This document shows positions 25,497 to 42,707 of a stretch of 42,707 nt of DNA, in pieces. Under the pieces are notes generated by a model. That model ran no database searches. It had not been told where the DNA came from and saw only the letters and a list, made by a program, of their open reading frames with translations. How positions within the stretch are numbered: the first letter of the stretch is position 1; every line of letters starts with the position of its first letter. The position numbers and the translations under genes are program-made. The stretch spans positions 1 through 42,707 of the forward strand of contig JAZGDW010000239.1 of NCBI GenBank assembly GCA_036478295.1, written 5' to 3'. The stretch comes from Candidatus Krumholzibacteriia bacterium (lineage in GTDB: Bacteria; Krumholzibacteriota; Krumholzibacteriia; WVZY01).

Positions 25497-28400
25497 TCAG
25501 TGAAAGTCACGGCTCTTGCCATGCCCGGGCCGGGTGGGCACTTTTGGGGCCCAGAGGGTCTCGGCAATGAGATGGGTCACGCCCGAGGCCACCTGCAATC
25601 GCCCCGTCACTCCAATAAACGAGGCGGTTTTGACCAGCACGGTGTGCTGTTTGAAAACATTCTGCCAGACAACGACGTTTACGAATCCCGCCTCGTCTTC
25701 CAAAGTCATAAAAACCACACCGCCCGCCGTCGACGGACGCTGGCGGCAGATGACCAGGCCGGCGTAGCGAACGCGCCGTCCATCGGGCATGTCTTTTACC
25801 TCCCTTGCATCGGGCAGGCCCTGGGCCGCAAGCCAATCGCGCAGCGGGGTGAGCGGGTGCGCGCGGGGACTGTGGCCGGTTGCACGGTAATCCCAGTCGA
25901 TGGTTTCAAAAAAACTCAACGGTGCAAAACGCGTTTTCGACCGGGTGGCGTTTAGCGGCAGCCGCGGAGCGGCGGTACGGTCCAGACCACGTACTTGCCA
26001 GATCGTATTGCGCCGGTTTTTCTCGAAGCACTCGAAAGCGCCCGCTTCGGACAACCGCCGGAGGGGCGCGTCTTCGAGATCGGTTCTTTCCGCAAAGTCT
26101 TCGAGCGACTTGAACTCTCCCAGCTGGCGGGTGGTCTCTATGCGTTCCCAGGCGCTTTCGCGAAAACTGCGCACGTATCCCAGCCCCATGCGTACGGCGA
26201 ACCCTTCGCCGCTCTCGCGGCACGGCTCGAGCGTGCACTCCCAGCGGCTCTTTTGTACGTGTACCGGCCGTACATGGATGCCGTGACGCTTGGCGTCGTC
26301 GATTATCGTAGATGGCGAGTAGAATCCCATCGGCTGCGCATTCAAGAGTGCGCAGGTGAACGCCGCAGGGTGATGGCATTTGAGGTATGCGGTGACATAG
26401 GTAATGAGGGCAAAGCTCGCCGCATGGCTTTCCGGAAAACCGTACTCGCCGAATCCCTGTATCTGTTTGAACACCCGCTCGGCGAATGCTCTGGAAATCC
26501 CCTTCGCTATCATGCGCGAGATCAATCGGTCGCGGTGACGGAGGAGCCGGCCCGACCGCCGCCACGCGGCCATGTCACGCCGCAGCTGGTCGGACTCGCT
26601 CGGTGTGTAATCCGCCGCTACCATGGCAATCCGCATCACCTGTTCCTGAAAGAGCGGTACGCCGAGTGTTTTTTCCAAAACAGGTTTCAAGGACGGGTGC
26701 GGGTAGATAATTTGCTCTTCGCCGTTTCGGCGGCGGAGGTAGGGATGCACCATGCCACCGGTAATGGGACCGGGGCGCACGATGCTCACTTCGATAACCA
26801 GGTCGTAGTAGGTGCGGGGCTTGAGGCGGGGCAGCATTGCCATCTGTGCGCGGCTTTCGATTTGAAAGACGCCCACCGTGTCCGCCCGCCGGATCATTTC
26901 AAAGGTCGCTTCATCATCGGCCGGCACCGTGGCCATCGAATAGCGCTTGCCTGAAACCATCTCGATCGAGCGAAACGCAATGTCGATGACCGTGAGCATG
27001 CCCAGCCCCAGAAGATCCACCTTGAAAAGTCCCAGCGCTTCGAGATCTTCCTTGTCCCACTGGATCACGGTGCGGTCCGGCATGGTGGCGTTCTCGATCG
27101 GTACCAGGTCGCGCACCGGCTCGTGGCCGAGAAGAAAACCACCGGGATGAATGGAGAGGTGCCGGGGAAAATCCTGGATCTCCAGTATCAAGTCCAGAAG
27201 GTGGCGGTGACGTGGATTTTGTGGGTCGAAGCCCGTCGGCTTCAGCGTCTCCGGTGAAACGGTGTCGTAATAGGAGAGCAGTTTGGCAAAGCGGTCGATG
27301 GTGGTCTCCGACAGCTCGAGCACCTTGCCGACGTCACGGATGGCCGAACGCGCCCGGTAACGGATGAAATTGGCGACCATGGCTGCGTGCGTGCGGCCGT
27401 ACTTCTCGTAGACGTGTTGAATCACCTCTTCGCGCCGGTTGTGTTCGATGTCGAGGTCGATGTCCGGCGGCTCCGCGCGTTCGCGCGAGATAAAGCGCTC
27501 GAAGAGAAGACCGGTCCGCACCGGGTCGACGGCGGTTATTCCCAGGCAGAAACACACCACCGAATTGGCCGCCGAACCACGACCCTGGCAGAGAATCTCG
27601 CGGTTGCGGCAGTAACGGACGATCTCCCACATGGTGAGGAAATACCCCTCGTAGTCGAGATCGTGGATGAGGTCGAGTTCCTTTCCGAGTTGCGCAATGA
27701 CGCCCCCTGGGATGCCTTCGGGATAGCGCCAGCGGGCACCCCGCAGCGTCAGCTCGCGCAGCCGTTCCTTGGATGTGCTGCCGTCGGGCAGTTCCTCGGA
27801 AGGGTAGCGGTAGCGGATTTCAGACAGAGAAAAGCTGCACCGCGCGGCCACTTCTTCGGTGCGCCATACCGATTCGGGATCGTCGGCAAAAAGGGCGAAG
27901 AAATCTTCTTTGGACTTCAAGGCGTGCTCGGCGTTGGGTTTGATGAGCCGGCCCGCCGTGGATAGTGTCACCCCGAATCGAATGCAGGTAAGCACGTCCT
28001 GCACGGCGCGCCGCTTCGGTGTGTGGTAGAGCACTTCGGTGGCGGCCGTGGTGGGAATGCGGTAACGCGCCGCGCGCTCACGGGTGCGCCGTTCCGGCCG
28101 CACGTCGCCGGCGCGCCGGTGACGCGTTACCATGGCGTAAAGCCTGTCGCCGAAGGCTTCACGCAGGTTGCGTGCGACAAAGAGCGGGTCTGCCCGCGCC
28201 GCCAGCAGACTGCGTTCACCGCCCCAGAGCGCGATCAGTCCTCCGGCGTGTGTACAGATTTCTCTCCAGCGTACGGTACATTCGCCCTTGGGCGAGCGCA
28301 GGCGCCCGCCGGAGATCAAACGGCAGAGACCGGTATACCCTGCACGGTTGGTGGCGAGAAGCACAATGGTGGAGCCGTCCTCGACGGTTACCTGCGAGCC

Positions 28401-28610
28401 GATGATCAGGTGCACGCCGAGTGCCCGGGCTCTTACGTGGCCGCGGACGATACCGTATACGCCGTCGCGGTCGGTAATCGCGAGCGTCTCGATACCCAGT
28501 TGCGCGCACTGCTCGACCAACTCCTCGGGGTGGCTCGCGCCTTCGAGAAACGAGTAGTTGCTCTTGCACCACAGGGGCACATAGCCGTGTGCCCGTTGAC
28601 GCCGGGTCAT
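25497..28610 (-). CDS. dnaE2: Error-prone DNA polymerase DnaE2 (ImuC)
   Basis: PHP domain ([15 protein letters not shown]), [36 protein letters not shown] fold, C-terminal SRDFH signature; ATGA overlap with imuB. Confidence 0.96.
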
Positions 28611-30175
28611 GCCACTTCGCCCTGGACAAAGGTGCGCCTGCGGCGCCGGTCGTAATAGATCCACAGCCAACGGCCCTGCGTACTGCGGATATAGTAGTAC
28701 TCGCGGTGAATCCTTCGCATCCACCACCCGCCCGAGATGATGTAAGGACCGATGACGCCGGGACCGGCACGGGGTCCGGTCGGCCTTGACATATCTTCAG
28801 GCGGGCGCGCCTCGATGCCAAAAAAGGGACGTCCGGTATGGTGCTGACGTCCGTGGTACTGCGGCGGGTTTGTAGGACGACCATCTCCCGTACGGTGCGA
28901 CCATGACAGCAGCGCGATGGACTTCGAAAAAATCTTCCGCACAAGACTGCGTGCCTTGACCTTGCGTGGAGATGGAAGGGGCAGTTTTTCCATCGGCTCC
29001 CATCGGTAGCGCGCCTCAGGTAGATGGCCGTCGCGAAGCGTTGCCTTCATCACCGCATGCTCTCCGAACTCGGCGCGCAGACGCGCGAACGCACGGTCGG
29101 CCGCCCGGAGATCACGCGTTGGTTCTTGCGAGAAAAGTTGCAGTTGCCTGGGTACGGCTGTGACCTCTTCGGCCTCGACGGTGATATCGACCACGCCGGA
29201 GCTGAGTGAAATGCTTTGCAGGCGGAGTTCAATGAGCTTGAGAATTTGGGTGGCATCGATGGTGGACGCGGCGGGGCGCAGCCGTTCGGTTCTTTTCTCG
29301 CCGTTGTCGAGTGTGAGCGAGAGTGAGATCGCAGCGACCGCCATGTTTTCTTCCACGAGCGAAGCCACAATCGATTCCAGCAGCGTCTCGACAACGATCA
29401 AGAGACGTGCGACGTCGTCCACGGGGTGGTCGAGCGTGGTCCCTGCCGCAAACGGTTCCCGGGGCGCGAGCGGATCGATGGGCGCATACAACTCGTTTTT
29501 GGCGAGCTTGTAGAGTGTGTGTGCCTCGGGACCGAAGCGCTTGCGAATTCCCGTTGCGGGAAGGTCGATGAATTCACCCAGTGAAGTGATGCCAAGCTGG
29601 TCGAGGGCACTTCGGAGTACGGGGTCGAAACCCAGGCGTACCAGCGGCACCGTGCGCGCGTGCTTTCGTTCCTGCGCGGCGCTGTCGAAGACGAGTATCT
29701 TTTTGCACGCCTGCGCTGCGGCGTAGGTGCCGTAACGTGTAAAGCCCACCGCTACCGTCCAGTGGTATCCGTCCCGCGCAAGCTCCGAGCCGATGAGACC
29801 CGCCCACTTTTTCATAGAGGGATAAAGCAGCGAGAGCCCGGAGGCGCCGAGCCAGAAGATTCCCGGCGCGTGCTGCGACGGTTCGACATCCGGCGTAAAG
29901 AAGCGCAGCCGCTCGGTCAGGGCGGTTATGTGTTTTTCGATCTCGGGGGCGGCAATCACACCGGCCCGAAGATCGGGTGAGAGCGAGAGGCCCTTGGCGT
30001 ACCGCATGCCCGGGAGGATGCGATAACGCGTGGCACGGGAATTCACCCACAGGATGACACCCTGCGGTGTGTCCTTGTCCACAACCGCCGCCGGGAGCGT
30101 TTTCCAATCGGGGTGCCGGCGGATGAGGAGTTGCAGGGGAAAGGCGGGCAGGTTAACACAGGCCATCCGGTCCAC
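28607..30175 (-). CDS. imuB: ImuB, Y-family DNA polymerase-like accessory protein
   Basis: Degenerate Y-family N-terminus, FTPDVE, clamp motif QLQLF, C-terminal GGWW...REYY...WIYYD; GGAGG RBS; lies between imuA and dnaE2. Confidence 0.92.
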
Positions 30176-30848
30176 GGTACACCTCCGTATGATGCCAACC
30201 CAGTCCGTGGCGTTTGTCCCGCAGGATCTCGAGCTCCCAGGTGAACCGGTCGAACCCCGTCTTGTGTATCACCCCCTGCGCACGGAGGGAAACCAGCGGC
30301 CCCAGCGACGGGACCGCCGGTTCTTTGTGGGTGAGGCAGAGAAGTGCGGTGTGATGTTTTCGGGCCAGTGCGGCCAGGCGGGCCTGCACCGCGATGCGCA
30401 TGTCGATTTCGCTCCCGAGATCGAGCACGATAATGCCGAACCCCCCGGAGCGCAGGAGCTGTTCGCCCGCGCGTGCCGCCGACAAGAGGTGGGGTACGCG
30501 AACGACCGGCAGCGATTCGAGGTCGATGCCGCATGCCGCGAAATCGGGAGGGAAAAAGGTGGAGTCTTGCAAAGCAACCCAGGCGGCGGGCTCCCCGCGG
30601 TGCTGCGAGTCGAGGATGAGGGAAGCCGCCGCCGTCATGGAAACAGCCGGGGTAGAAATCTCGAGAAAGCGGCCCCGGAGCGTATCCAGACACCAGGCTG
30701 CGGGCGCTCGCCCGGGCACCCGAGGAGCGGCCGCTCCTCGGGAAGCCCCGGTTGCCGCATGAGCTTCTTTGTCGGTGCGCGGCAGCTGACGTACAACCTG
30801 GACGGCCGTGCCGGAGCGCTCGAGTATGATCGGGCGGGAGGAAGCCAT
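30153..30848 (-). CDS. imuA: ImuA, RecA-like accessory protein
   Basis: GRFLEIS (degenerate Walker A), GEPAAWV, FFPPDFAACGIDL, LLRSGGFGIIVLDL, ARLAALAR; position in the cassette. Confidence 0.85.
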   Translation of the reverse strand: MASSRPIILERSGTAVQVVRQLPRTDKEAHAATGASRGAAAPRVPGRAPAAWCLDTLRGRFLEISTPAVSMTAAASLILDSQHRGEPAAWVALQDSTFFPPDFAACGIDLESLPVVRVPHLLSAARAGEQLLRSGGFGIIVLDLGSEIDMRIAVQARLAALARKHHTALLCLTHKEPAVPSLGPLVSLRAQGVIHKTGFDRFTWELEILRDKRHGLGWHHTEVYRGPDGLC

Positions 30849-30878
30849 TACAAAATTCTCTTATCGCGTCAAACTCTG

Positions 30879-31499
30879 TTAAACCTGTGGAATCTCGATG
30901 TAACGTCTTATCTCGATCACTTTGCCCAGAATGATCAATTCATCCGGGTCGGGAATGATCGGCTTGAATTCGGGATTTTCCGGGTGGAGCTCGATCCGGT
31001 TCTTCTTGATGCGGAGCCGTTTGACCGTCGCTTCATCACCCAACAGGGCCACGACCACATCACCCGAGTCCGCCGTCGGCTGGTGGCGGACAATGGCGAT
31101 ATCGCCGGGCATGATCCCCGCACCGGTCATGCTTTCCCCCTGGACGGTGAGGGCGAAAAGATCGCCCGCACCCCGGGATTGCACGGGTACATAGCCCTCG
31201 ATGTCTTCCACCGCCGTTGTCGGGTCACCCGCCTCCACTCTCCCCAGGAGGGGAATCGGAAGGACCACAGGGATCTTTTCGAGGCCGGGCAGGGAGTACC
31301 CCCGGGCTTTGCCCTTCCTTTTGGCCAGACGCCCCTCCTTGACCAGCTGCTCCAGGTGCTCTCGTGCTGTTTCCACAGCCTTGAAGCAAAAGGCGTCCCG
31401 TACCTCACGCACGGTCGGTGGCAGTCCTTCGAGCAGGCGCTTGCGCACGAACCGGTAGATTCGCTCGCGGGTCTGGCCTTTTGGGGTCCGGGGTGACAT
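30879..31499 (-). CDS. lexA: Transcriptional repressor LexA
   Basis: wHTH PPTVRE...HLEQL..GRL; cleavage site LGRVEAG; catalytic GESM (Ser) and ATVKR (Lys); 206 aa from ATG 31499. Confidence 0.95.
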   Translation of the reverse strand: MSPRTPKGQTRERIYRFVRKRLLEGLPPTVREVRDAFCFKAVETAREHLEQLVKEGRLAKRKGKARGYSLPGLEKIPVVLPIPLLGRVEAGDPTTAVEDIEGYVPVQSRGAGDLFALTVQGESMTGAGIMPGDIAIVRHQPTADSGDVVVALLGDEATVKRLRIKKNRIELHPENPEFKPIIPDPDELIILGKVIEIRRYIEIPQV

Positions 31500-31505
31500 A
31501 TTGGT

Positions 31506-31535
31506 ATCATACCAGACATTTGTCTGGTATGTCAA
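31506..31535 (-). promoter_or_regulatory. lexA promoter containing a perfect palindromic operator (candidate SOS box)
   Basis: Minus strand TTGACA-N18-TATGAT with extended -10 TG; perfect inverted repeat CATACCAGACA-TT-TGTCTGGTATG at 31508..31531. Confidence 0.85.
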
Positions 31536-34600: not shown

Positions 34601-37156
34601 ATGATCGGGCAGACTATCTCGCATTACAAGATCGTCGAGAAACTCGGCGGGGGCGGCATGGGCGTTGTCTACAAGGCGTGGGACAACCGCCTCAAACGCG
34701 ATGTTGCCCTCAAGTTCCTGCCGCCCGAAATGACCCGCGACGAGGAGTTCAAGACCCGTTTCCGGCACGAGGCTCAGGCAGCCTCCGCCCTGGATCACCC
34801 GAACATCTGCAACATCCACGAAATCGACGAAACCCCCCAGGGTCGTATGTTCATCTGCATGGCCCACTACAAGGGCGAAACCCTGAAGAAGAAAATCGCA
34901 CGCGGCCACTTGTCCACGGACGAGGTGGCGCACACGATAGACCAGGTCGCGCGGGGATTGGCCGAGGCACACCGGCACGGCATCGTCCATCGCGACATAA
35001 AGCCCGCGAACGTGATGATAACGGACAAGGGCAGGGTGAAGATCGTCGATTTTGGCCTGGCCACGCAAAGTGGCACCTCCAGAATCACACGGACGGGGCG
35101 CACATTGGGTACGCTGGTGTACATGTCGCCGGAGCAGGCGCGCGGTGATGCGATCGACGAGCGCACGGACATTTTTTCGCTGGGCGTCGTGTGGTACGAA
35201 ATGCTCACGGGAACGATTCCCTTCGAAGGCGACCACGAAGCAGCCGTGCTCTACGGGATCATGCACAAGAACCCCGAGCCGCTCTCGACATACCGCAGTG
35301 ACATCCCCGCGGGCCTGCAAGAACTAATGGACAAGGCACTGCACAAGGAAGTGGACAAACGCTACCAGACGATGACCGAGCTGCGCGAGGACCTGCACAG
35401 ACTGATGGGGGGACCATCGGGCGGCCGCTCGCTTGTCCGGCGGGAGTGGTACCGGAGGGTCCGTTCCCCGCTGGCGATAGCGGCCGCTGTGGTGATTCTC
35501 CTCGCGTTGAGTCCGATGCTCCGGAACGCCGTACAGGAACTGTTCACACGGGCGCCGGACCAGAAACACATCGCCGTGCTGCCGTTCGAGAACATGGGGC
35601 CGGTAAACGAGGCTTTCAGCGCCGGCCTGGTGGAAACCCTGACCAGCAAGCTCACCCAGCTGGAACGGTTTCACGAATCGCTGTGGGTAATACCAGCCAG
35701 CGAGGTGCGCCACTGGCAGGTGGCCAGTCCCAGCGAGGCCCGGCGCCTCTTCGCCGTGAACCTGGTGTTTACCGGGAGTATCCAGCAGCTCGGGGACAGC
35801 TACCGGCTCACCCTGAACCTGATCGAGGTGGGCAAGAAAACGCCGAGACAGTTGAGCTCGGCGGTAATCGACGAACCGCTGACCAACGTCTCGGCATTGC
35901 AGGATAACACGGTGATCAAGGCGGCCGGCCTGCTGAATCTCGAACTGGGTCCGGAAACACAAAGGCTGCTCACCGAGGGTGGCACGGTCATGGCGGCGGC
36001 AAACGATTACTACCTGCAGGGTCTCGGGTACCTCCAGCGCTACCAAAAAGTCGACAACCTGGACCACGCTGTCTCCTTGTTCGAGCGAGCGATCAAAGAA
36101 GATTCTCTCTACGCGCTGGCGTATGCCGGTCTGGGAGAGGCGTACTGGCGAAAATACCGGTATTCGATGGACACGCGGTGGGTGGAGCCGGCGGTGAGGA
36201 ACGGTGAGCGTGCCGTCGAGTTGAACGATCTGTTGGCGCCCGTGCATGTGACCGCAGGAGTGATCTACAAAGGGACGGGCAACGATGAACGAGCAGTTGA
36301 AGCGTTCCAGTACGCGCTCGCGCTCGATCCCTCCAGTGCCGAGGCCCATCGCGGCCTGGCGTCTGCGTACGAGAATCTGCAGCGGTTGGCCGAGGCGGAA
36401 TCGACCTATCAAAAAGCCATTGAATTGAAGCCCGGCTATTGGGGCGGCCACGACGACCTGGGGATCTTCTACCATTCCAGAGGACGTTATGACGATGCGT
36501 TGGTGGCGATGAACCGCGTTGTAGCCCTCGCACCCGACAACAGCCGGGGATACAATATGCTGGGTGCGATTTACTACGCCCAGGAGCGTTGGCAGGAGGC
36601 GCGAGAGATGTGGGAGCAAGCCGCCCAAATCGAACCGGACTATCGAGTCTACTCGAACCTGGGAATTCTTCACTACATCGAGGGGCGCTACGTCGCCGCG
36701 GCGGCGAGCACCGAGAAGGCGCTCGCGCTCAACAACACCAGTTACGTCACCTGGGCGAACCTGGCAAACGCCCAATACTGGAGGCCGGGTAAGCGGAGCG
36801 AAGCTCTTGCCACTTATCGCCATGCCGCGGAAATGGCCGAAGAGAACAGGGCGATAAATCCGCGAGACCCGGAATTGCTGGCGTCGTTGGCCGGGTACTA
36901 CGTGGTGCTCGAAGAAGGCCCAAAGGCATTATCGATGTTGCAGGAGGCGTTCAAGATTGCACCGAGCAACTGGTGGGTGTTATACAACTACGGTTTTGCA
37001 TACGAACAGCTGGGCGACAGGGGAAAAGCACTGGAATGGATTGAAAAGGCACTGGATGCCGGTTATCCGATGAAAGAAGTGGAACGTGACCCGTTCCTCG
37101 TGGATCTGCGGACGGATGCCCGCTTCGAGGAGCTGGCGACGAGGCGCCGCGGTTAG
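34601..37156 (+). CDS. Hanks-type Ser/Thr protein kinase with TM helix, TolB-N-like domain and TPR repeats
   Basis: LGGGGMGVVY, VALK, HRDIKPAN, DFG, YMSPEQ; TM LAIAAAVVILLAL; IAVLPFEN; multiple TPRs; ends DP.LVDLRTDARF. Confidence 0.95.
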   Translation: MIGQTISHYKIVEKLGGGGMGVVYKAWDNRLKRDVALKFLPPEMTRDEEFKTRFRHEAQAASALDHPNICNIHEIDETPQGRMFICMAHYKGETLKKKIARGHLSTDEVAHTIDQVARGLAEAHRHGIVHRDIKPANVMITDKGRVKIVDFGLATQSGTSRITRTGRTLGTLVYMSPEQARGDAIDERTDIFSLGVVWYEMLTGTIPFEGDHEAAVLYGIMHKNPEPLSTYRSDIPAGLQELMDKALHKEVDKRYQTMTELREDLHRLMGGPSGGRSLVRREWYRRVRSPLAIAAAVVILLALSPMLRNAVQELFTRAPDQKHIAVLPFENMGPVNEAFSAGLVETLTSKLTQLERFHESLWVIPASEVRHWQVASPSEARRLFAVNLVFTGSIQQLGDSYRLTLNLIEVGKKTPRQLSSAVIDEPLTNVSALQDNTVIKAAGLLNLELGPETQRLLTEGGTVMAAANDYYLQGLGYLQRYQKVDNLDHAVSLFERAIKEDSLYALAYAGLGEAYWRKYRYSMDTRWVEPAVRNGERAVELNDLLAPVHVTAGVIYKGTGNDERAVEAFQYALALDPSSAEAHRGLASAYENLQRLAEAESTYQKAIELKPGYWGGHDDLGIFYHSRGRYDDALVAMNRVVALAPDNSRGYNMLGAIYYAQERWQEAREMWEQAAQIEPDYRVYSNLGILHYIEGRYVAAAASTEKALALNNTSYVTWANLANAQYWRPGKRSEALATYRHAAEMAEENRAINPRDPELLASLAGYYVVLEEGPKALSMLQEAFKIAPSNWWVLYNYGFAYEQLGDRGKALEWIEKALDAGYPMKEVERDPFLVDLRTDARFEELATRRRG

Positions 37157-37224: not shown

Positions 37225-37599
37225 ATGGAGAACCCGGAAAAACCAACCCCGAAGAACCATAGTGTCAGCGTGTACCTGGAAGGTGATACCTGGAAAGTGA
37301 GCCGTCCCGACAACGGCAGGGTACACCTCCATGACACGGTGACGTGGAACGTCGTTCAGGAGGGAGTGACGGCCCACCTGCAGTTCACCGACGCGCTTCC
37401 CGAGCACAAAGATCAGTGCATCTTTGACGGTGTGGATACCGATTGGCAGAGGAACGTCGAGTCGGGTGCGCCCGTAACCCTCACTCTGAGAAAGGGCGTT
37501 CCACGCGGATCGTATCACTATGCGGCATGGATCACGCCCGCGGGTCAATGGGCCATCGGCGATAATCCACCGCCGCAGATCGATACCGATAGACCGTAG
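37225..37599 (+). CDS. Hypothetical beta-rich protein (possibly cupredoxin/Ig-like)
   Basis: AGGAGG RBS; 124 aa; DTVTW, GSYHY, ends NPPPQIDTDRP; host-like codon usage. Confidence 0.65.
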   Translation: MENPEKPTPKNHSVSVYLEGDTWKVSRPDNGRVHLHDTVTWNVVQEGVTAHLQFTDALPEHKDQCIFDGVDTDWQRNVESGAPVTLTLRKGVPRGSYHYAAWITPAGQWAIGDNPPPQIDTDRP

Positions 37600-37855
37600 G
37601 CAATCTTCCCGGAGCGTAAGGACGCGCCGACACCCCGCCCCGGTGAACGACGGCCGGCGACGACTTCCTTGCGCCGCCGCTTCTTGCCGCTACTACACGC
37701 GCACTTCGCGCCGCCGCCCCTGCTACGGGCGGTCGGTGGGGACCGATGTGCGCGGGGCTGCTAACTTGATAAATCTCAATAAAATAAGCCGAACGAAATA
37801 CGTGCCGGGTGTTATATTTAACCAGGTTACGAAATATTTTTCGGTAGTCTGATAA

Positions 37856-38040
37856 CAGAGTCACAGGAGAGATCCGCCCCACGGGCGGGCGCCGAAGGGG
37901 CAAGGTCGCCAGCGGCCGAAACTCTCAGGCAAAAGGACTGGACTCTGGTGTCTCCTGGAAAGATCCGGGGCATTGGCCTGGGCACCGACGGGGTAAGCCC
38001 TACGGGCGTAGGGTAATCTCTCAGGTAAACGAGACAGGGG
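37856..38040 (+). ncRNA. Tandem glycine riboswitch
   Basis: Aptamer 1 (about 37856-37947): GGAGAG...CGCCGAAGGGGCAA...AACTCTCAGGCAAAAGGAC, closed by CAGAGTC/GACTCTG. Aptamer 2 (about 37952-38040): CTGGAAAG...CACCGACGGGGTAA...AATCTCTCAGGT...GACAGGGG. Confidence 0.93.
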
Positions 38041-38072
38041 CAGAATGTAGGTAGTTCTGTCGCTGTTTTTTT
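38034..38072 (+). terminator. Riboswitch expression-platform terminator
   Basis: ACAGGGGCAGAA / TTCTGTCGCTGT stem (one mismatch, one G-U) followed by a T run; the 5' arm is the 3' strand of aptamer 2 P1. Confidence 0.7.
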
Positions 38073-38108
38073 ATTGGAGGAACAGGGCTGACAAGGGAGG
38101 GTGCGAGC

Positions 38109-39407
38109 ATGAATCGCTTCGCGGAACGAATCGCTCAACTCGGCACGGAAAACGCGTTCAAAATCGGCGTCGACATTCGGCGCTGCGAGGAAAAGGGCAT
38201 GACCGTGGTCAAGCTCAACCTCGGCGAACCGGATTTCAATAGCGCGGATAACATCAACCAGGTTGCGATCGAGAACATCCGCATCGGCAATTCCCACTAC
38301 ACCGACCCGCAGGGGATAATGCCGCTGCGGCAGGCCATCGCCCGGCAGGTTTCAAAGACGCGAGGCATCGACGTCGGCCCCGAGCGGGTCGTCGTGACGC
38401 CGGGCGCGAAACCGCCGATTTGCTACACGATGATGACACACGTGAACCCGGGAGACGAGGTTATCTACCCCAGCCCGGGTTTTCCAATTTATGAGTCGTG
38501 GGTCACCTTCGTCGGCGGCGTGCCGGTACCCCTGCATCTTGAAGAGGAAAAGGATTTTCGATTCGACGCCACAGACCTGGAAAAACTCATCACGTCGAAG
38601 ACCAAGGTTCTCATTATCAATTCGCCCTCGAATCCCACGGGTGGCGTGCTGACGAAGGAAGACCTGCAGGATATCGCGGGCGTGATTCGGAAAAAGGCGC
38701 CGCCGGATATCCGCATCTACTCGGACGAGGTATACGAGGACATCATTTTCGACGGCAAGCGGCACGAGAGCATCGCATCGCTTCCCGGCATGGCGGAGAA
38801 AACGATCCTTGTCAGCGGACACTCGAAGTCGTACGCGATGACAGGATGGCGGCTCGGGTACGCCGTGTTGCCGACGGAGCAAGAGGCGGCGGTCTTCAAA
38901 CAACTCAACATCAACATCATCTCGTGCACGCCGCCCTTCATCCAGGAGGCGGGCAGGGAGGCCCTGGAGAACAGCGTCAACAGGCGCATCATCGCCGAGA
39001 TGGTGATGGAGTTCGAGAAGCGGCGCGATGTGGTCGTGGCAGGCCTGAACAAAATTCCGGGCATCCGCTGCGCCAGACCAGAGGGCGCGTTCTATGTATT
39101 TCCAAATATCGGCGGCGTATGCAGCAAGCTGGGCGTTCTCGAAGCCTACGAGAAGCTGGATCCCGCAACGAGATCGAAAACGACACCGTCCACACTTTTT
39201 CAGATGTTTGCCTTGTACCACCACGGCGTCGCAACCATGGACCGGCGTTCTTTCGGCATCGTCGGCAGCGAGGGCAAACATTACTTGAGGCTATCTACGG
39301 CCGCCGACCTGGCTTCGCTCAGCGAAGGGCTGCGGCGCATAGGCAACGCGTCGCAAGACAAGGCCGGGTTCGACCAGTTCATCGATGAGGGCGCGTATCT
39401 CTACTGA
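38109..39407 (+). CDS. PLP-dependent aminotransferase class I/II (aspartate aminotransferase-like)
   Basis: GGAGG RBS; LGEPDF, TPGAK, PGFPIY, NSPSNPTG, SDEVY, SGHSKSYAMTGWRLG (PLP Lys), PEGAFY, YLRLS. Confidence 0.93.
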   Translation: MNRFAERIAQLGTENAFKIGVDIRRCEEKGMTVVKLNLGEPDFNSADNINQVAIENIRIGNSHYTDPQGIMPLRQAIARQVSKTRGIDVGPERVVVTPGAKPPICYTMMTHVNPGDEVIYPSPGFPIYESWVTFVGGVPVPLHLEEEKDFRFDATDLEKLITSKTKVLIINSPSNPTGGVLTKEDLQDIAGVIRKKAPPDIRIYSDEVYEDIIFDGKRHESIASLPGMAEKTILVSGHSKSYAMTGWRLGYAVLPTEQEAAVFKQLNINIISCTPPFIQEAGREALENSVNRRIIAEMVMEFEKRRDVVVAGLNKIPGIRCARPEGAFYVFPNIGGVCSKLGVLEAYEKLDPATRSKTTPSTLFQMFALYHHGVATMDRRSFGIVGSEGKHYLRLSTAADLASLSEGLRRIGNASQDKAGFDQFIDEGAYLY

Positions 39408-39423
39408 CGCGAAGGAGCAAGTC

Positions 39424-41781
39424 ATGGCATTCACATTGGGTCCAAGGCGCGGGGTCTACATCGACGTGCGCGACGAGGTGAACGCCTCCGGCAACCCACT
39501 CAGTGCCGGGGAAGTCGAGACGTTCGAGACGTTCGACCTCGTGTACCGTTCGCTGTGCGCGGCGCTTTTCAACTACGTACCCACCTCCGGTCATCCGGGT
39601 GGTTCCGTCTCGTCGGGACGTTTTGTTGCAGGTATTCTCTTCGACTCCATGGACTACGACGTCTCCAATCCGGACCGGGAGGACGCGGACATTATTTCGT
39701 ACGCCGCCGGCCATAAGGCGCTGGGCCTCTACTGCATGTGGGCGCTTCGCAATGAGATGATGGTCATCGGCGCGCCGGAACTCCTGCCCGCGGACGAACG
39801 GTGTCAGCTGCGCATCGAGGACCTGCTCGGGTTTCGCCGCAACCCGACGGCAACGACACCGCTCTTCAAAGAGTTCAGGGCCAAGGCCCTGGACGGACAC
39901 CCGACCCCCGGCACACCGTTCGTGCGATTGTCCACCGGCGCTTCTGGCGTCGGTATGGGCACGTCCCTGGGACTCGCCCTGGGGGCTGCGGATTACTACG
40001 GAGACGACGCGCCGCGCGTCCACATCGTCGAAGGAGAAGGCGGAATGACCCCCGGGCGTGTCGGCGAAGCCATGGCCGCCGCGGGAACGGCGTCGTTGAA
40101 AAACGCTATTCTGCATGTCGACTGGAACCAGGCGTCCATCGACAGCAATCACGTCTGCCGCGACGGCGACAAGCCCGGTGATTACGTACAGTGGACACCG
40201 GCGGAGTTCGCTTATCTTCATGACTGGAACGTTATTTATGTGCCCGACGGCACCGACTTCCAGCAGATAATCACGGCACAGCGCAAGGCGCTCTCCCTGG
40301 ACAACCACCAGCCGACGGCGATCGTCTACCGTACGACGAAGGGCTGGCAATACGGTATCAAGGGCAAGGCATCCCACGGGGCGGGACACAAGCTGTGCAG
40401 CGACGGCTTTTACGAAGCGTTGCAGCCGCTGCTCGAGAAGACCGGTGGTACACTGCCACGATGCGACTGTGAGCCCGCCGGCCAGCGCTGCGTGGGCGGA
40501 ACGGTGACGGAAGTCGTGGAGGAGTGTTTCTGGGATGCACTCATGACGCTTCGTACATCGCTCGACTCCCAGCGAAGCGTGGCCGAGGCGATGGCGAAAC
40601 GCCTGGTCGAAGCCCGCCGGCGACTCGACGTCCGCGGGCGCAAGCCGCGCAGCAAGGCGCCGAATGCGGCAGCGATCTACGAAGCCGCCGCCCGCAACGG
40701 TGTGCCCGAGGAATTACGGCTAAAACCCGGTGCTTCCACCACGCTACGCGGGGAGCTCGGCAAGGTGCTTCAGTACTACAATAAGGAGAGCGGCGGTGCG
40801 GTGTTCGGCGCGGCGGCCGATCTGTTGGGTTCGACGAGCGTGAACGCGATCGGCAAAGGTTTCGACGACGGCTATTACAACGCCCATGCCAACCCCGGCG
40901 CGCGCCTGCTTTCGATCGGCGGCATCTGCGAGGACGCGATGGCGGGGGTGCTGTCGGGCCTTTCCAGTTACGGGCATCATATCGGGGTGGGTTCTTCCTA
41001 CGGGGCGTTCAACGCGCCGCTCGGGCACATCGCCGCGCGCCTGCACGCCATCGGCAACCAGGCACGGGAGGCGGTTACCGGCGAGGCCTACCGTCCCTTT
41101 GTCCTCGTGTGCGCACACACCGGTGTCAAGACCGGTGAGGATGGCCCTACGCACGCCGACCCGCAGGCGCTGCAGCTCCTGCAAGAGAACTTCCCGCTCG
41201 GCACCATGATAACGCTCACTCCCTGGGACCCGCAGGAGGTGTGGCCGCTCATGTCGGCGGCGCTCGCCCGGCGCCCGGCGGTCATCGCCCCATTTGTCAC
41301 CCGGCCCGCGGAAACGGTGCTGGACCGCGAGGGGCTCGGCCTGGCTCCAGCAGACGACGTGCGCTCCGGCGTTTACCAGCTGCGCCGCGCGAAGGGCGAG
41401 GGAGACGGAACGCTAATACTCCAGGGCAGCGACGTCGCGTACGCCTTCGTGGACGGGGCGATGAAGCTGCTCGAGATAGAGGGTATCGACCTCAACGTGT
41501 ATTACATCGCCAGCACGGAGCTGTTCGACCTGCTGCCGGAGGACGAGCAGGAACGAATCCTGCCGCGTGAACGTTCCGAAGAGGCGATGGGGATTACGGG
41601 CTTCACCCTGCCGACCATGTATCGCTGGATCCGTTCCGAGCGCGGTCGCAAGATGACACTGCATCCTTTTCGCAAGGGGCGCTTTCTGGGAAGCGGCCAG
41701 GCCCACATGGTACTGTCCGAAGCGGGACTCGATGGAAAGAGTCAGTTCGAAGCCATCGTTCACTACGTGAGGGAACACTAA
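39424..41781 (+). CDS. Divergent transketolase-like ThDP-dependent enzyme
   Basis: AAGGAG RBS before ATG 39424; SGHPGG, AAGH, DGHP, variant ThDP motif GEGG...DWN.ASID, SHGA, ADL.GS, GICE, HTG...GEDGPTH, VTRP; 785 aa. Confidence 0.85.
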   Translation: MAFTLGPRRGVYIDVRDEVNASGNPLSAGEVETFETFDLVYRSLCAALFNYVPTSGHPGGSVSSGRFVAGILFDSMDYDVSNPDREDADIISYAAGHKALGLYCMWALRNEMMVIGAPELLPADERCQLRIEDLLGFRRNPTATTPLFKEFRAKALDGHPTPGTPFVRLSTGASGVGMGTSLGLALGAADYYGDDAPRVHIVEGEGGMTPGRVGEAMAAAGTASLKNAILHVDWNQASIDSNHVCRDGDKPGDYVQWTPAEFAYLHDWNVIYVPDGTDFQQIITAQRKALSLDNHQPTAIVYRTTKGWQYGIKGKASHGAGHKLCSDGFYEALQPLLEKTGGTLPRCDCEPAGQRCVGGTVTEVVEECFWDALMTLRTSLDSQRSVAEAMAKRLVEARRRLDVRGRKPRSKAPNAAAIYEAAARNGVPEELRLKPGASTTLRGELGKVLQYYNKESGGAVFGAAADLLGSTSVNAIGKGFDDGYYNAHANPGARLLSIGGICEDAMAGVLSGLSSYGHHIGVGSSYGAFNAPLGHIAARLHAIGNQAREAVTGEAYRPFVLVCAHTGVKTGEDGPTHADPQALQLLQENFPLGTMITLTPWDPQEVWPLMSAALARRPAVIAPFVTRPAETVLDREGLGLAPADDVRSGVYQLRRAKGEGDGTLILQGSDVAYAFVDGAMKLLEIEGIDLNVYYIASTELFDLLPEDEQERILPRERSEEAMGITGFTLPTMYRWIRSERGRKMTLHPFRKGRFLGSGQAHMVLSEAGLDGKSQFEAIVHYVREH

Positions 41782-42707
41782 TGAATCAAACACGCAACAA
41801 AAACCCGATTATCCGGGCGCTCGGCTCGGCCAAACTCACCCTGGTGATTCTTGCCGCCTTTGCCGTTTCCATCGCCGTCGCCACGTTCCTGGAGGTGCGC
41901 TACGGAGCGGCGGGTGCACGGGCGCTGGTATACAACGCGCGCTGGTTCGAAGCACTGCTGGCGCTGCTGGTGCTGAACGTGATCGTCGCGCTCGTCGCCA
42001 ATCTCCCATACCGCAAGCATCAGACCGGCTACGTCATTACGCACATCGCGTTCATCATCGTTCTCCTCGGGGCCGGGATCACGCGCTTTTTTGCCTACGA
42101 GGGCAGCATGGCGATCCGCGAAGGGGCGTCGACCGATTACATCTACTCGACCGCGGACTACGTGAGCTTGCAGGCGGGCACGGAATCGGCGAGCTTTCCC
42201 GTGCGTCTCTACAAACCGGACAGGAACGTTCTGCAGCGCGATGTCACAGTTGGCAGGGAGCGCTTTCGAGTGTCGATCGACGAGTACTGGCCGCACATGG
42301 ACGAGCGCCTGGCGGAGGGTCCGGGCGGCCGGCCCGTCGTCGTGTTTGCGGCACAAGCGCACTCCGGAGGCCACAGCGGACACCGAGTCCTGGACCTCGG
42401 TGACGCGTTCCGGGCGAGTGGTGTGACGGTGCATTTTGTCGGGGAGGAAGTGGAAACCGTGGAGGCGGGAACGGCGCGGGGCGAGATGGTCGTCGTCATC
42501 GACGAGGAGACACACCGCATGGCGGTACCCGCTGGCGTGCCGGCCGGGATGAAGGCGGCAGGCTACCGTTTCCGCATTACCGAGTTTGCACCCGATTTTC
42601 GCGTCGGGCGGACGCCGGACCCCGCCGATGCCATGAACAACCCCGCGATCCGGGTGATGATCGAAGGACCGAACGGTACGAGCGCCGAGCGTCTTCTCTT
42701 CGCATTC
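41781..42707 (+). CDS. resB: Cytochrome c biogenesis protein ResB/CcsB-like (system II), 5' part; runs off the window
   Basis: Not in the ORF track (no stop in window). ATG overlaps the transketolase stop (TAATG). Translates MNQTRNKNPIIRALGSAKLTLVIL...ATFLE...VYNARWFEALL..L.LN...GYVITHIAFIIVLLGAGITR...EGSMAIREG. Confidence 0.85.
   Translation, partial: MNQTRNKNPIIRALGSAKLTLVILAAFAVSIAVATFLEVRYGAAGARALVYNARWFEALLALLVLNVIVALVANLPYRKHQTGYVITHIAFIIVLLGAGITRFFAYEGSMAIREGASTDYIYSTADYVSLQAGTESASFPVRLYKPDRNVLQRDVTVGRERFRVSIDEYWPHMDERLAEGPGGRPVVVFAAQAHSGGHSGHRVLDLGDAFRASGVTVHFVGEEVETVEAGTARGEMVVVIDEETHRMAVPAGVPAGMKAAGYRFRITEFAPDFRVGRTPDPADAMNNPAIRVMIEGPNGTSAERLLFAF

Follow-up and report, generated by a model that had tools for sequence, protein, structure and literature searches.

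We analyzed a stretch of DNA of 42,707 nt (in the following called the window) from Candidatus Krumholzibacteriia bacterium (contig JAZGDW010000239.1, assembly GCA_036478295.1, 90.9% complete; genome label G000), in which a tandem glycine riboswitch precedes the genes for a pyridoxal phosphate (PLP)-dependent aminotransferase and for a long transketolase-like enzyme of the thiamine diphosphate (ThDP) type. An ordinary switch and an unstudied transketolase subfamily here probably mark an undescribed pathway. In our preferred reading, to which we assign a probability of roughly one half, glycine is converted via serine to hydroxypyruvate, from which a two-carbon unit is transferred with decarboxylation to an aldose phosphate. 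The elements of this module lie in the following order.

37853..37950, + strand: glycine riboswitch aptamer 1 (RF00504), 66.2 bits, E 9.9e-12
37945..38047, + strand: glycine riboswitch aptamer 2 (RF00504), 48.3 bits, above the gathering score of 32
38034..38072, + strand: intrinsic terminator, predicted expression platform; hairpin and U-tract, -17.3 kcal/mol
38109..39407, + strand: class I PLP aminotransferase, 432 aa; PF00155, E 1.6e-55
39424..41781, + strand: long transketolase-like ThDP enzyme, 785 aa; PF00456, PF02779 and PF22613, all weak

We compared this module with 159 related loci, 79 from genomes and 80 from metagenomes (L- and G-numbers label loci and genomes), and with a sample of carrier genomes comprising 50 of the 79 genome loci, picked mainly for long flanks. 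Most names given to neighboring genes are best matches scoring under curated cut-offs.

An earlier, sequence-only reading of this DNA had placed a two-aptamer glycine riboswitch directly upstream of the aminotransferase gene, and the covariance model bears this out: both aptamers exceed the gathering score, and the riboswitch is an ordinary member of RF00504. A whole-genome search of G000, with 150 of 375 candidates scored, gave no RF00504 match beyond these two aptamers. In the computed fold, the 5′ arm of the terminator is the 3′ strand of the P1 stem of aptamer 2. The same overlap occurs at all six riboswitch loci (this one and five others), with hairpin sequences that differ between loci. 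Two aptamers above the gathering score and a terminator overlapping the second P1 stem are also the features shared with the gcvT-type tandem glycine riboswitch of Bacillus subtilis. The expression platform is predicted to exclude the ligand-bound P1 stem, the layout of a transcriptional ON switch as in the B. subtilis model. No sigma-70 promoter match was found upstream of the riboswitch, and a search for holders of the RNA listed none. The cargo differs from that in glycine riboswitch surveys: their available portions name gcv genes, transporters, sdaA, serC, serA and malate synthase (PMC3766115, PMC2211319) and no transketolase-like gene such as the one here, and a term search in eight supplements of PMC3766115 returned no mention of transketolase, glyoxylate or hydroxypyruvate.

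The riboswitch recurs in five of the 159 loci (L006, L018, L020, L142 and L183), which fall on four separate branches, one of them a spirochaete. The spirochaete genome carries, besides the riboswitch ahead of the aminotransferase/enzyme pair, a second one ahead of gcvT-H-PA-PB. All 20 same-class loci that we fetched, one of which has the gene pair, lack the riboswitch, and the link was found in 5 of 76 genomes (47 candidates scored per genome). On these two counts we rejected the riboswitch as a general feature of the module.

The transketolase-like gene begins 16 nt past the aminotransferase gene (stop 39407, ATG 39424), the spacing noted earlier, and the gap contains AAGGAG. On sequence grounds, its product belongs to a distinct, highly conserved and previously unstudied transketolase subfamily. 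It scores far under the curated transketolase profiles (TIGR00232, 98 against a cut-off of 682; PRK05899, 125 against 488). In a search for relatives, 4469 of 8000 scored candidates passed an E-value of 0.001; the 120 listed are at least 70% identical, and the database names shown are "transketolase" or "hypothetical protein". Plasmids gave no match, and no Atlas structure was found. A structure predicted from 67 sequences (pLDDT 89.7) matched transketolases best (Z 36.9, rmsd 2.6 Å over 632 residues, 22% identity). The chain combines the PP, Pyr and C-terminal domains and has a transketolase fold, which places the enzyme in the transketolase superfamily.

With transketolases of EC 2.2.1.1 (E. 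coli TktA, B. anthracis 3M49) the enzyme shares the three-domain fold, the catalytic histidines and the phosphate site. The equivalents of TktA H100, H261, R358, D381, L382, S385, E411, F437, H461, D469, H473 and R520 are invariant in all 151 full-length members, that of H26 in all 149 members covering the position, and that of H66 (His97) in 67 of 67. It differs in its low identity of ~22%, in being ~120 aa longer, and in several family-specific exchanges. The ThDP/metal motif GDG...N reads GEG...N in 150/151 members (one gap), so that the acidic ligand is retained in altered form; E160 is replaced by Pro or Ala, F434 by Tyr (Tyr526, 151/151), and a Cys precedes the catalytic Glu. This Cys502 is invariant (151/151), and Cys325, Cys349 and Cys368, around a family-specific insertion, are kept in 123–147 of the 151 members; a metal or redox site formed by the conserved cysteines is possible.

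In a study on E. coli transketolase, changes at H100 or H473 favor pyruvate over hydroxypyruvate, and changes at D469 or R520 favor non-sugar acceptors (bioRxiv 10.1101/719906). Because the donor, acceptor and phosphate-site residues are all kept, the most likely role of the enzyme is to transfer a glycolaldehyde unit and to handle a sugar phosphate. Hydroxypyruvate is the only 2-oxoacid known to be accepted by the conserved donor site. Tyr526 corresponds to Tyr395 of 1-deoxy-D-xylulose 5-phosphate (DXP) synthase, and the Dxs of G000 itself shows the motif. The Y395F variant of DXP synthase raises the KM for glyceraldehyde 3-phosphate (GAP) more than tenfold and leaves that for pyruvate unaffected, though in E. 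coli the equivalent residue reportedly has little effect (PMC5851014). We propose DXP synthase as an analogy for a decarboxylating ligation of a 2-oxoacid to GAP; in contrast to it, the enzyme retains H100 and H473, the pair that suits a hydroxylated donor, and G000 has a separate dxs.

The aminotransferase matches PF00155 with 189 bits and retains the PLP lysine motif SKS and a downstream GWR. It stays below the cut-off of every NCBIfam family shown (best 25 of 71), including the aspartate, alanine and aromatic equivalogs, and its nearest solved structures are aromatic/aspartate aminotransferases. It also carries the Lys of a GAK motif, typical of I-beta aspartate aminotransferases, and its sequence assigns it to fold I and an I-beta-like subgroup. 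From gene context, we predict serine (or glycine) and a 2-oxoacid as its substrates.

Across the loci, the pairing of the two genes recurs. An adjacent aminotransferase gene on the same strand was found in 51 of 159 loci (36/79 genome and 15/80 metagenome loci), and these aminotransferases belong to two separate clades. In the genome loci, 30 of 79 have an orthologous aminotransferase (52–81%) upstream and 6 of 79 a member of the second clade (about 36%) downstream; the metagenome loci comprise 9/80 and 6/80, respectively, and in 8 further loci of the 159 the aminotransferase gene is convergent. Both clades share the motifs TE[N/T]AF, GKP and NxNxxSC. Of the linkage that had been proposed from the sequence, the pairing is conserved, while the riboswitch does not belong to the conserved core of the module. 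The context types are scattered over the enzyme tree, which was built by a quick method. The aminotransferase orthologue also occurs apart from the enzyme, in L235 between sarcosine-oxidase-like genes and GcvT/SHMT-gcvH and in L234:6417-8633 (G006) immediately upstream of panB.

The glycine link of the pair, also claimed before, is borne out by the riboswitch and, independently of it, by gcv core genes: 9 of 159 loci contain them, whereas roughly 0.8 would be expected by chance; lpd-lipA occurs in three more. A fusion of GcvT with serine hydroxymethyltransferase (SHMT) adjoins the enzyme in L012, L017, L153 and L169. Characteristic gene orders are glycine/alanine symporter-enzyme-aminotransferase-GcvT/SHMT in L017, GcvT/SHMT-aminotransferase-enzyme in L153 and lpd-gcvH-enzyme-tdh-like-kbl in L029. 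GcvT-SHMT fusion proteins of 883–902 aa recur in several phyla (L012:8643-11291, L017:9771-12419, L153, L169 and L235:4064-6712). The lpd, lipA and lipB neighbors also suggested an E1-like role of the enzyme with lipoyl-GcvH. We put this idea aside, since such genes belong to gcv clusters and the enzyme retains an intact sugar-phosphate site.

In a second set of contexts, a class I partner is missing. In G003 and G005, a glyoxylate carboligase-like gene, a LarA-like racemase gene and glcD-E-F-like genes lie directly upstream of the enzyme gene; L148 has the carboligase-like and glcD-E-F-like genes and no racemase gene. The carboligase-like gene, in the same operon as the enzyme in all three cases, reaches 725 bits on PRK11269 (cut-off 791). 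A divergent unit in G003 consists of a class V aminotransferase gene and a tartronate-semialdehyde-reductase-like gene. The second set also includes L197, where a 1477-aa protein encoded two genes upstream of the enzyme (L197:562-4992) joins a MOFRL glycerate kinase to an FAD-linked hydroxyacid dehydrogenase and CCG Fe-S domains. Other gene orders are reductase-aminotransferase-enzyme-glutamate dehydrogenase in L155 and, in G007, reductase and glycerate kinase genes 7 kb from the enzyme. Hydroxypyruvate-reductase-like genes are thereby among the partners of the enzyme. The G003 glyoxylate cluster (L221:4870-18253) also holds an IclR/BhcR-like regulator, and no hydroxypyruvate isomerase gene was seen in this stretch. 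It offers a lead for the substrate of the LarA homologue; LarA homologues can racemize glycerate (PMC11770544), and context often misleads (PMC7583248). In L030 and L075, the enzyme lies beside xanthine-dehydrogenase-like and amidohydrolase genes, suggestive of purine breakdown as another source of glycine or glyoxylate, and in L010, L033, L057 and L062 an ETF pair and two CCG Fe-S oxidoreductase genes are divergent from it.

Within this class, 28 of the 61 sampled genomes carry the enzyme. G000 has a canonical transketolase gene on its contig C220, in a pentose-phosphate operon with tal/pgi-gnd-zwf-like genes (neighbors read by eye), and conventional transketolases were found in 45 of 50 carrier genomes. 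We therefore rejected the enzyme as the housekeeping transketolase of the genome, in agreement with the sequence-only reading; it accompanies a canonical transketolase and lies outside pentose-phosphate operons. That reading had also proposed a carbon route without the glycine cleavage system, and this part has to be given up. G000 encodes gcvT-H-PA-PB and SHMT as well as its own dxs (C240), and GcvP is present in 49 of 50 carriers, which excludes the module as a substitute for glycine cleavage. Since in addition the module often lies inside gcv clusters by the GcvT-SHMT fusion, it more likely acts downstream of glycine cleavage.

In the route that we prefer, abundant glycine would make the riboswitch block termination, so that the aminotransferase and enzyme genes are transcribed. 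Glycine cleavage and SHMT, whose genes lie elsewhere, would make serine from two glycines, and the aminotransferase would then form hydroxypyruvate by passing the amino group of serine to a dicarboxylic 2-oxoacid. The enzyme would be a dedicated hydroxypyruvate-using transketolase that decarboxylates its donor on ThDP and donates the glycolaldehyde unit to an aldose phosphate, with GAP as the most likely acceptor, giving xylulose 5-phosphate and CO2. The irreversible loss of CO2 would pull the unfavorable transamination. In other bacteria, the enzyme would take hydroxypyruvate derived from glyoxylate or glycerate. We infer the substrates of both enzymes, the acceptor and the direction from the active-site residues and the gene contexts, which fit the hydroxypyruvate donor already considered in the sequence-only reading. 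The contexts meet at hydroxypyruvate because serine from the cleavage system, tartronate semialdehyde from the carboligase and glycerate all lead there. The route would need no third enzyme, which fits the absence of matches to dihydroxyacetone (DHA) kinase, MOFRL glycerate kinase and GlxK-type kinase in the incomplete G000 assembly.

A pathway of serine degradation known from photorespiration and from Thermotoga uses serine aminotransferase, hydroxypyruvate reductase and glycerate kinase. It shares the path from glycine via serine to hydroxypyruvate, whereas here hydroxypyruvate, instead of being reduced and phosphorylated, would be decarboxylated into a sugar phosphate without NADH or ATP. 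The two-step chemistry itself is identical to that of an engineered cascade of serine transaminase and transketolase, which works in vitro with the transketolase pulling the transamination (PMC8719814); it differs in being artificial and in using ordinary transketolases and non-phosphorylated acceptors. A literature search, with subscription journals outside its coverage, found no publication on the enzyme family, the module or a natural occurrence of the route and no report of hydroxypyruvate as a natural transketolase donor.

Several observations weigh against this route. The active-site residues are those of an ordinary transketolase, and a preference for hydroxypyruvate is therefore not proven. 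In the cascade study, the best serine transaminases are of class V or IV, and one of class I-II gave a yield of 4.6% with L-serine (PMC8719814). No adjacent aminotransferase gene is present in 100 of the 159 loci (44 of them with short flanks), and among the 33 evaluable loci in which the orthologous aminotransferase gene lies upstream, only 5 carry the riboswitch. In 5 of 50 carriers, all incomplete genomes, no conventional transketolase was found. GcvP is present in 59 of 60 class genomes regardless of the enzyme, and this lack of enrichment led us to reject co-occurrence as support within the class. G000 has PLP threonine/serine-dehydratase-like genes (below cut-off) that offer serine an alternative exit, so the module is not the only one. 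Finally, all contexts are also compatible with glyoxylate as the common metabolite. In a second phylum (GcvP baseline 36/79), both sample carriers and four other deltaproteobacterial carriers have GcvP (Fisher p 0.01 with kin that are not independent, 0.2 for the sample alone), which is weak support because the carriers are few and related. Fe-S serine dehydratase was found in 5 of 47 carriers and 1 of 33 non-carriers, and its absence does not discriminate.

If glyoxylate is the shared metabolite, the aminotransferase would make it from glycine, and it would serve the enzyme as acceptor for a ketose-phosphate donor; the products would be an aldose phosphate and 3-oxo-tetronate, the latter going on to dihydroxyacetone and CO2. 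Alternatively, the route would run in reverse and supply glyoxylate for glycine. This would fit the glycine signal directly, as well as the glcD-E-F-like and glyoxylate-reductase-like genes found in some contexts. Glyoxylate aminotransferases of class I are known. Malate synthase, which consumes glyoxylate, is among the known glycine riboswitch targets (PMC2211319). We nevertheless consider it unlikely. DHA kinase was found in one of five genomes tested, not in G000, and no oxo-tetronate kinase or decarboxylase is among the annotated neighbors. The clustering with GcvT-SHMT fusions and the racemase for a chiral hydroxyacid would also stay unexplained.

Still less probable is an ordinary second transketolase for ketose and aldose phosphates, co-induced by glycine with an aspartate-type aminotransferase that has separate substrates. 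The retained canonical residues, the GAK-motif Lys and the five carriers with no conventional transketolase match speak for it; most carriers have a conventional enzyme, the neighbors are genes for glycine, glyoxylate and glycerate rather than tal, rpe or rpi, and two different aminotransferase clades have been recruited beside the enzyme. Very improbable, to our judgment, is a non-homologous glyoxylate carboligase that joins two glyoxylates to tartronate semialdehyde or hydroxypyruvate and CO2 in a folate-free path from glycine to serine: the glycolate-oxidase-like and glycerate kinase neighbors would suit it, but a real carboligase-like gene shares the operon in G003, G005 and L148, the sugar-phosphate site is invariant, and only 8 of 47 carriers have a MOFRL-type glycerate kinase. 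Least probable is a phosphoketolase-like enzyme that would form acetyl phosphate from hydroxypyruvate by decarboxylation, dehydration and phosphorolysis and so conserve energy from serine, for despite a length near that of phosphoketolases, feature scores of 0.95–0.96 for XFP clusters, an SY-x-x-F motif with Tyr526 and an acetate kinase gene immediately upstream of the enzyme in L202 (the only such locus), phosphoketolases match the predicted model less well (Z 29.4) than transketolases do, no XFP Pfam match was obtained at E 0.001, and phosphoketolases carry Asn at the position of Asp573.

Downstream of the module, one further gene reaches the end of the window.

41781..42707, + strand: ResB-like cytochrome c biogenesis gene; PF05140

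Its start overlaps the stop of the enzyme gene by 1 nt. It follows the module elsewhere only in L006 among the annotated loci and is probably a neighbor, not part of the module. ResB-like and CcsA-like genes follow the module here and in L006, the nearest relative (L006:8410-11925), and may share its transcript. Further upstream, the window encodes a LexA-like repressor followed by ImuA-, ImuB- and DnaE2-like proteins (25497-31535, - strand), by eye resembling an SOS mutagenesis cassette, then a Ser/Thr kinase with TPR repeats (34601-37156, + strand) and a 124-aa open reading frame without Pfam match (37225-37599, + strand). Elsewhere in G000 (C187:675-4955, - strand), a 1427-aa protein matches the malate-synthase TIM barrel at about twice the usual length, and G078 has a similar long frame.

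More broadly, and with odds that we place a little short of even, the enzymes of this subfamily may be widespread natural hydroxypyruvate transketolases, working in a decarboxylating, DXP-synthase-like direction and providing a shared point at which carbon from glycine, serine, glyoxylate and glycerate enters sugar phosphates in uncultured bacteria from over ten phyla. If this holds, three hydroxypyruvate would yield one hexose phosphate for one ATP, compared with about six by gluconeogenesis from pyruvate according to our arithmetic, and the module would represent a previously undescribed route of gluconeogenesis or fermentation that spares ATP, as well as a source of biocatalysts ready for use. 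As an artificial donor for transketolases, hydroxypyruvate is standard; an enzyme dedicated to it would extend the glycine riboswitch regulon, provide parts for photorespiration bypasses and carbon-carbon ligation, and give the glycine, serine and glyoxylate metabolism of abundant uncultured bacteria a further branch.

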